Source: a virus (lineage: Duplodnaviria; Heunggongvirae; Uroviricota; Caudoviricetes). Taken from it: DNA of 45,486 nucleotides. The notes under the pieces are model-generated. The model worked only from the letters and a program-made list of their open reading frames with translations, had not been told where the DNA came from and ran no database searches. This document shows positions 34,979 to 35,807 of the stretch, one piece after another; position 1 is the stretch's first letter, and every line of letters begins with the position of its first letter. The translations under genes were made by a program, and so were the position numbers. Location: IMG/VR virus record IMGVR_UViG_2597489870_000005, one strand, 5' to 3'.

Positions 34979-35807
34979 AAATCCACCCCGTAAATCCAGT
35001 CTGTGTTTGTCAGGTCGAGTTTTGGTTTGCCGGCTGTCACGCCAGCCTGTTGCTTGTTACGGTTGATTTCGAGTTGGGTCCACTTATCGCGGAGTTTGGC
35101 CGGACTCAGCACGTTACCGGACCAGAAGTTGTCCTGGCATGCCCAGCGGAACAGCACGCACATGTCGCGGTGGTTACGTCCGTCACGTTCACGCATCAGG
35201 CGGATATCGTTAGCCCACCCAGCAAAATTCGGTTTTCTGGCTGATGGTGCGATGGTCTTCACCATGTCAAACATCCACTCTGCGGCGGTCAGGTCTTCTG
35301 CTGTCCCCCACTTGCTGCCGCTCTGAATTGCAGCATCCGGTTTCACCACAGAAAGATCGTTTTCTGGCTGGTCAGAGGATTCGCCAGAATTCTCTGACGA
35401 ATAATCTTTTCTTTTTTCTTTTGTATTAGTGTCTTTTGTGTCCCCCTGTTTTGAGGGATACACCATTCTGAGATGTTTTTATTTGGTCCAAACATGCCGC
35501 CTTGCTGCTTGATAATATTCATTCTGACGAGTTCTAACTTGGCTTCATTGCATCGTTTGACAGGTAACTTTGTAATCTCGCTAAGTTGAGAATCGGTGAT
35601 TCTGTCCATTGGTTTATTCCACCCATAGGTTTTACGCAGAATGGCAAGCAGCACTTTAAACTGTCGCTTGGTCAGATCTGCGCCCGAATAAGCCTCAAGC
35701 AGCATATTTGATAGTCTGGCGTAACCATCATCGAGATCTGCCACATTACGCTCCTGTCCGGCAAAGTTACCTCTGCCGAAGTTGAGTATTTTTGCTGTAT
35801 TTGTCAT
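34975..35807 (-). pseudogene. O: Replication initiator O, frameshifted by 67-bp deletion within ori iterons
   Basis: N-terminal frame (MTNTAKILNF..., ATG 35807 with aggag SD) stops at 35343; lambda-O C-terminal frame continues to 34975; span 833 nt versus 900 nt in lambda. Confidence 0.8.
35441..35459 (-). repeat. Single remaining ori iteron (lambda has four)
   Basis: Minus-strand ATCCCTCAAAACAGGGGGA flanked by lambda ori-adjacent sequence; no further iteron copies nearby. Confidence 0.75.

Follow-up and report, generated by a model that had tools for sequence, protein, structure and literature searches.

A repeat-bounded 67-bp deletion in the lambda-type origin breaks the frame of initiator gene O in the attLambda prophage of E. 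coli ETEC H10407 and recurs in other E. coli prophages

The stretch of DNA analysed here (the window, 45,486 nt in full) is 100% identical, when reverse-complemented, to E. coli ETEC strain H10407 (NC_017633.1), where the attLambda prophage adjoins ybhC and extends from the integrase gene to a tail-fibre assembly gene. The immunity module of this prophage is P22-like, with c2, cro and c1/cII homologues (Pfam P22_Cro and Phage_CII), and its capsid module is also P22-like. The replication module is of the lambda type (O-P-ren-nin), and the features of its O-P part are collected in Table 1. The nin region contains a remnant of a DUF1364 gene without its N terminus (window about 32225–32314, record 875415–875504), a small deletion relative to the full-length DUF1364 gene present in strain JNE132847. 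The late region carries cargo at about 26630–29070 of the window (record 876659–877756 and 879640–881097), comprising a porin gene that separates the Q-like antiterminator gene from the lysis genes and is encoded on the opposite strand, and a trkG potassium-transporter gene with a ParB/Srx-domain gene after the lysis cassette.

One late gene of the prophage, the tail-tube gene (window 14840–15801, minus strand, 962 nt), is flagged as frameshifted by PGAP, and its longest open reading frame of 309 aa ends at 14872. We considered this flag as a sign of decay specific to H10407 and rejected it, because the unrelated strain CFSAN061771 has an equally flagged gene of 962 nt; flag and length thus appear to be a feature of the whole family. 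The 3' region of the gene is matched in 716 genomes, 356 of them at >=99%, and among the 25 matches listed all are of equal length with at least 99.6% identity. Instead of decay, the flag could reflect programmed frameshifting that is conserved, or a systematic problem of annotation.

Table 1. Features of the O-P region in the window
Feature	Position	Strand	Remarks
Lambda-type replication initiator gene O, pseudogene	34975..35807	minus	833 nt; 67-bp internal deletion, frameshifted
N-terminal O fragment, open reading frame	35343..35807	minus	154 aa: ~123 native residues and a 31-residue out-of-frame tail
O C-terminal frame	34975..35460	minus	out of register with the N-terminal frame; collinear with lambda O
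Deletion junction, 13-bp TATCCCTCAAAAC	35448..35460	minus	crossover somewhere inside
Remaining single iteron (O-binding site)	35441..35459	minus	identical to lambda iteron 4
AT-rich unwinding segment of ori, retained	35400..35440	minus	1 mismatch relative to lambda right of iteron 4
Inverted repeat with 12-nt arms right of ori, retained	35371..35398		same palindrome in lambda (repeat search)
Replication gene P, intact	34277..34978	minus	233 aa; Pfam Phage_lambda_P, E=1e-61

Gene O is 900 nt long in lambda and 833 nt long in the window, and outside the gap the two genes are 98.5% identical at the DNA level. Alignment with the ori region of lambda (NC_001416) using MAFFT reveals one clean gap of 67 columns; the rest of the aligned stretch, common to both sequences, contains only 2 mismatches. 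The gap corresponds to O nucleotides 348–414 and removes iterons 1–3. Since 67 is not a multiple of 3, the deletion also shifts the frame of O, and the RefSeq (PGAP) label for the H10407 gene is already 'replication protein, frameshifted'. The N-terminal frame starts at the ATG at 35807 (the list of open reading frames begins it at an upstream TTG at 35852), reads ...EWCIPQNRGTQKT...FLW and terminates at a stop codon at 35345–35343. Its product (CBJ00306.1) matches lambda O through ...NISEWCIPQN and then continues out of frame with RGTQKT..., and it contains the complete Phage_rep_O domain (Pfam PF04492; residues 22–115, profile positions 2–95 of 95, E=3e-37). The C-terminal frame, (MV)YPSKQGDTKDT...DWIYGVDL, ends at 34975 and matched no family in a Pfam search; in lambda, the C-terminal half of O is the half that interacts with P. 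The sole in-frame ATG upstream of this frame, at 35466, is not preceded by an evident Shine-Dalgarno sequence. A continuous O frame of ~299 aa, with the origin-binding and the P-binding halves in one protein, is absent from the window.

The four iterons of lambda are annotated at positions 39034–39118, at the left of an ori that extends over 39034–39160 (PMC3349717). As a repeat family, they appear as four 20-nt copies with spacings of 20, 24 and 23 nt, whereas there is no such family in the window. A scan of the 45.5 kb with up to 3 mismatches found exactly one iteron, at 35442–35459 on the minus strand (~0.03 sites expected by chance), and no second one elsewhere in the window; O thus lacks the central array of four (or six) ~19-bp iterons. 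Gene P is a full open reading frame that starts with an ATG overlapping the stop codon of O (ATGA). An earlier note, made from the letters of this DNA, had described an O homologue that breaks frame at the origin, a loss of 67 bp relative to lambda, a single iteron in place of four and an intact P. Pairwise alignment to lambda ori/O, the scan and the list of open reading frames bear out all of these, deletion and frameshift included, and the iteron sequence given in that note proves to be correct.

For comparison with intact alleles, a set of 80 IMG/VR loci encoding the C-terminal half of O was used. One of these, L015, has an intact 900-nt O with four iterons, and its flanks show 0/813 differences from the window, while the next-best alleles differ at 9 positions. 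Two private SNPs, at O nucleotides 255 and 449, are common to L015 and the window and are 93 nt and 35 nt away from the deletion, on its left and right side, respectively. Because these private SNPs are shared, the window allele can be described as an L015-type allele minus 67 bp. Analysis of the sibling prophage from whose contig L015 comes, IMGVR_UViG_2778261184_000004, extends the similarity well beyond O. The sibling is about 99.9% identical over 13.9 kb, and its 14-kb stretch (L103) differs from window positions 25014–38876 by 10 substitutions and the 67-bp indel, while it keeps four iterons and a 900-nt O. A near-identical relative with the full array and an intact O indicates that the deletion is recent, as had been supposed in the earlier note; the crossover between iteron 1 and iteron 4 supposed there also fits, both in the position of the gap and in the repeat found at the two sites in the parent alleles.

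The repeat is a perfect 13-bp direct repeat, TATCCCTCAAAAC, which starts both iteron 1 and iteron 4, 67 bp apart, and of which the product keeps one copy. Parent arrays were read directly in seven loci (L015, L082, L083, L084, L089, L094 and L099), and all seven are of a type in which a T precedes iteron 1 (T-type), with GGTG-TATCCCTCAAAAC at iteron 1 and GCTATCCCTCAAAAC at iteron 4. Deletions mediated by repeats are well established in E. coli, and the boundaries of this one in a 13-bp direct repeat point to slippage or short-homology deletion. On the evidence of the junction and the parent arrays, we consider it highly likely that a four-iteron ori within O lost 67 bp through misalignment of the TATCCCTCAAAAC copies, either by slippage during replication or by recombination at short homologies. 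The same product would result if the repeats underwent unequal exchange dependent on RecA. In the proposed course of events, the copy opening iteron 1 would misalign with the copy opening iteron 4, and a single event would then remove iterons 1–3 and shift the frame of O. Left behind would be the AT-rich segment and one iteron of the iteron-4 type, an O fragment of 154 aa with the origin-binding domain but without the P-recruiting C-terminal half, and an intact P whose start would no longer be reached by ribosomes translating O.

Related prophages carry other changes of the array that are likewise attributed to slippage. In TR01 (O157:H7; L098:1501–2423, NZ_CP033605.1 307371–308293), a 23-bp tandem duplication of iteron 3 results in five iterons and an O of 923 nt that is flagged as frameshifted, and an O span of 923 nt is also present in 2017C-4109, CDC#03-98 and FORC_044. 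In L080 (IMGVR_UViG_2671180417_000002, array starting near position 1403), a six-iteron array of the Stx-phage type has lost 20 bp between AAAACGAGGGA repeats, which leaves five iterons and an out-of-frame O of 919 nt. With iteron spacings of 20, 24 and 23 nt, most slippage events are expected to break the frame of O.

A 54-nt query that matches only the junction found it in 10 of the 5,426 complete E. coli genomes, which together contain about 1,790 lambda-type ori loci (in 1,334 genomes). Six haplotypes can be distinguished among the ten carriers; their immunity regions and contexts are different, and they differ mutually by 11–28 SNPs across O. Intact counterparts were found for each of them. 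The H10407 haplotype (shared with SEC470) matches L015 as described above. The haplotype of S88, N53 and N62 shows 0/813 differences from the intact alleles L083, L084, L089 and L094, and that of O157:H7 ATCC 43889 shows 0/813 from intact L082 and from the flanks of TR01; for the latter pair this means that one and the same defective prophage has undergone both expansion and collapse of its array. Two haplotypes, JNE132847 and 15.03CC, are 99.9% identical to 900-nt alleles, the former in AMSHJX01, FORC_042 and others, the latter in 10034940-2 and J6. The sixth (PV15-279 and F3113, with the IMG/VR locus L014) shows 0/588 differences from intact O157 strain 493/89. Because each one-iteron haplotype matches an intact allele of its own, about six independent deletions are indicated. 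All six events took place on T-type arrays, a mild excess: a T-type iteron 1 is present in about 795 complete genomes, and arrays of the C-type, in which the repeat is 12 bp, make up 20 of the 52 four-iteron arrays in the collected loci (mostly from IMG/VR).

In the two O157:H7 strains of the sixth haplotype, PV15-279 (L004:2424–3031) and F3113 (L006:2424–3031), the one-iteron O also lacks ~225 nt at its N-terminal end, whereas strain 493/89 has an intact 900-nt O with identical flanks. The collapse thus neither depends on a working O nor preserves one. The N-truncated O of PV15-279 adjoins a copy of IS1203. Outside the complete genomes, an exact-pattern scan for the junction gave a single match in IMG/VR, which is L014 with the O157-type N-truncated allele. 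The same scan gave none in the GTDB species-representative genomes and none in the JGI metagenome contigs, and all 142 phage records with this ori are free of the one-iteron junction.

The prophage of JNE132847 (L013, NZ_AP028094.1 819000–868500) occupies the same attLambda site as that of H10407, and its cI, cro and cII proteins are identical to those of the window. The right half of its O differs by 17 SNPs, its Q and lysis genes are different, and its capsid module is lambda-like instead of P22-like. The pair clearly illustrates the mosaicism of modules around a dead origin. Downstream lie nleH and cif, two effector pseudogenes with frameshifts.

It can be argued that a single ancient deletion allele was spread among prophages by homologous recombination, so that the number of deletions would be one and not about six. 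Lambdoid prophages are highly mosaic, the JNE132847 prophage combines the H10407 immunity module with other late genes and another right half of O, and the identical 20-nt junction, with T before the iteron, is present in all one-iteron alleles. However, each haplotype has a different intact allele as its match, with identity that is complete or 99.9% on both flanks. For H10407 alone, the private SNPs would confine the left crossover to 93 nt and the right one to 35 nt from the deletion, and a patch as tight as this would be needed five more times. An identical junction is also what slippage is expected to produce, because all parents carry the same 13-bp repeat. We therefore regard the spread of a single allele as improbable. 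About six independent deletions explain the flanking sequences much more simply than six transfers of one allele, each within a very short conversion patch.

O binding involves four iterons, of which iteron 4 is bound most weakly (PMC7466680). Initiation of lambda replication is abolished by small deletions in ori or O, and truncated O, or O without iteron 4, fails to complement (PMC6022878). The H10407 prophage should accordingly be considered ori-minus as well as O-minus, with a defect in cis (no assembly of an O-some) and a defect in trans (no functional O), and theta replication should not start after induction. A lambda-type O locus is present at one place in the H10407 genome and no second one was found there, so nothing supplies O in trans. 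The ATG of P lies ~365 nt past the premature O stop, and any translational coupling between O and P would thus be lost.

The locus might nevertheless be thought functional, either because an origin with one iteron and a split O still replicates or because the N-terminal fragment has acquired a new use, such as that of a decoy against superinfection by phages with a lambda ori. The complete Phage_rep_O domain of the fragment, the ATG at 35466 that opens the C-terminal frame and the persistence of the allele in several lineages are consistent with such a role. However, the internal ATG has no Shine-Dalgarno sequence, and the promoter of O, pR, is repressed in a lysogen. The arrangement is found in no sequenced phage among the 142 records, and the collapse in O157:H7 is found in O genes that are also N-truncated, which argues against a conserved protein function. 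Moreover, origin binding and recruitment of P are needed on one O molecule, and a 24-bp deletion that removes iteron 4 is already sufficient to abolish complementation by O (PMC6022878). A function of the locus is therefore very improbable, still less probable than the spread of a single allele, and loss of replication by the 67-bp deletion is the reading that we retain.

The junction of H10407 is also found in a separate assembly of 5,167,819 bp (GCA_052953355.1), which has seven small indels relative to the reference and keeps the 20-nt junction. The exact 154-aa truncated O is recorded for 270 contigs, among them this assembly and an ENA metagenome scaffold that is 100% identical over 6.5 kb. 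SEC470 (CP007594) agrees exactly with H10407 in length and coordinates and was for this reason not counted as independent; it is probably a copy of H10407. Although tandem repeats can in general collapse in assemblies and SEC470 lends no independent support, the artefact that the earlier note had offered as an alternative, with four iterons in the true H10407 genome, is effectively refuted by these records and by the junction in nine other complete genomes (SEC470 included, the other eight being of other strains), and is implausible as an assembly collapse because the whole array is only 87 bp, below any read length. The 67-bp lesion is real.

The RefSeq flag had already marked O of H10407 as a pseudogene, and our analysis adds the intact sibling, the repeat-bounded junction and about six recurrences. 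The lesion is an ordinary prophage-inactivating repeat deletion and involves no new mechanism. Its consequence is that the attLambda prophage of H10407, a reference ETEC strain, is very probably unable to replicate. A yield of phage is therefore unlikely, even though almost all other genes look intact. The case also draws attention to the location of origin repeats inside the initiator gene, which makes them a single small target where slippage kills both functions together. This target has been struck repeatedly in natural prophages, in 10 of about 1,790 lambda-type ori loci and by about six independent events. Predictors of prophage intactness should check the number of iterons alongside the integrity of open reading frames, and the inactivation of a prophage can conveniently be dated with the lesion as a natural marker.

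A more far-reaching suggestion is that the iteron array is a built-in hypermutable weak point for the repeated 'grounding' of lambdoid prophages, and that its recurrence reflects positive selection against replicative killing and not just neutral decay. The tally in its favour consists of about six one-iteron collapses together with the separate +23-bp and −20-bp frameshifting variants of the array. We put this forward tentatively and consider it rather unlikely; if it were true, one slippage between iteron 1 and iteron 4 would be the step that destroys origin and initiator together.

In the literature searched, the coverage of which is incomplete, no report of the H10407 prophage lesion, of a natural collapse between iterons 1 and 4 (ITN1–ITN4) or of its recurrence was found. 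With lambda itself (NC_001416), the H10407 prophage shares the sequence of iteron 4, the AT-rich segment, the palindrome and a downstream P with the ATGA overlap. Unlike lambda, the H10407 prophage lacks iterons 1–3 (67 bp) and has a frameshifted O, its immunity is P22-like and not imm-lambda, and its capsid module is P22-like. The O/ori region of H10407 is a dead member of the lambda O/ori family, homologous to it but without a continuous O frame or an iteron array.

Variation in the number of iterons is known from lambdoid and Stx phages, with arrays of four or six (PMC7466680), and these belong to the same ori family, in which the length of the array is polymorphic. Of the 91 arrays collected here, most of them from IMG/VR, 52 are 87 nt and 27 are 126 nt long. 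Arrays with four or six iterons keep O in frame (900 or 939 nt) and occur in viable phages, whereas the frame of O is broken in the one-iteron form (833 nt) and in both five-iteron forms (919 and 923 nt).

The deletion resembles lesions obtained in the laboratory among survivors of replicative killing, namely the r93, r96 and r99 mutants of Rambach, ori95, ori96 and ori98, and the RK- ilr mutants of Hayes (PMC6022878). These are likewise small deletions in ori or O that abolish the initiation of prophage replication, and ori98 removes iteron 4. The sequenced r mutations, however, are in-frame deletions of 12–24 bp, whereas that of H10407 is 67 bp long, out of frame, takes away three iterons and lies precisely between repeat copies. 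The r and ori mutants were also selected in the laboratory, while deletions of the H10407 type arose in natural isolates. In its exact 13-bp direct-repeat boundaries with one copy retained, the H10407 deletion is like other slipped-strand deletions between short repeats in E. coli, and in the inactivation of a function dangerous to the host it is like the general decay, or 'grounding', of prophages. It differs from both only in its particular target, where one event hits a cis-acting site together with the gene that contains it.
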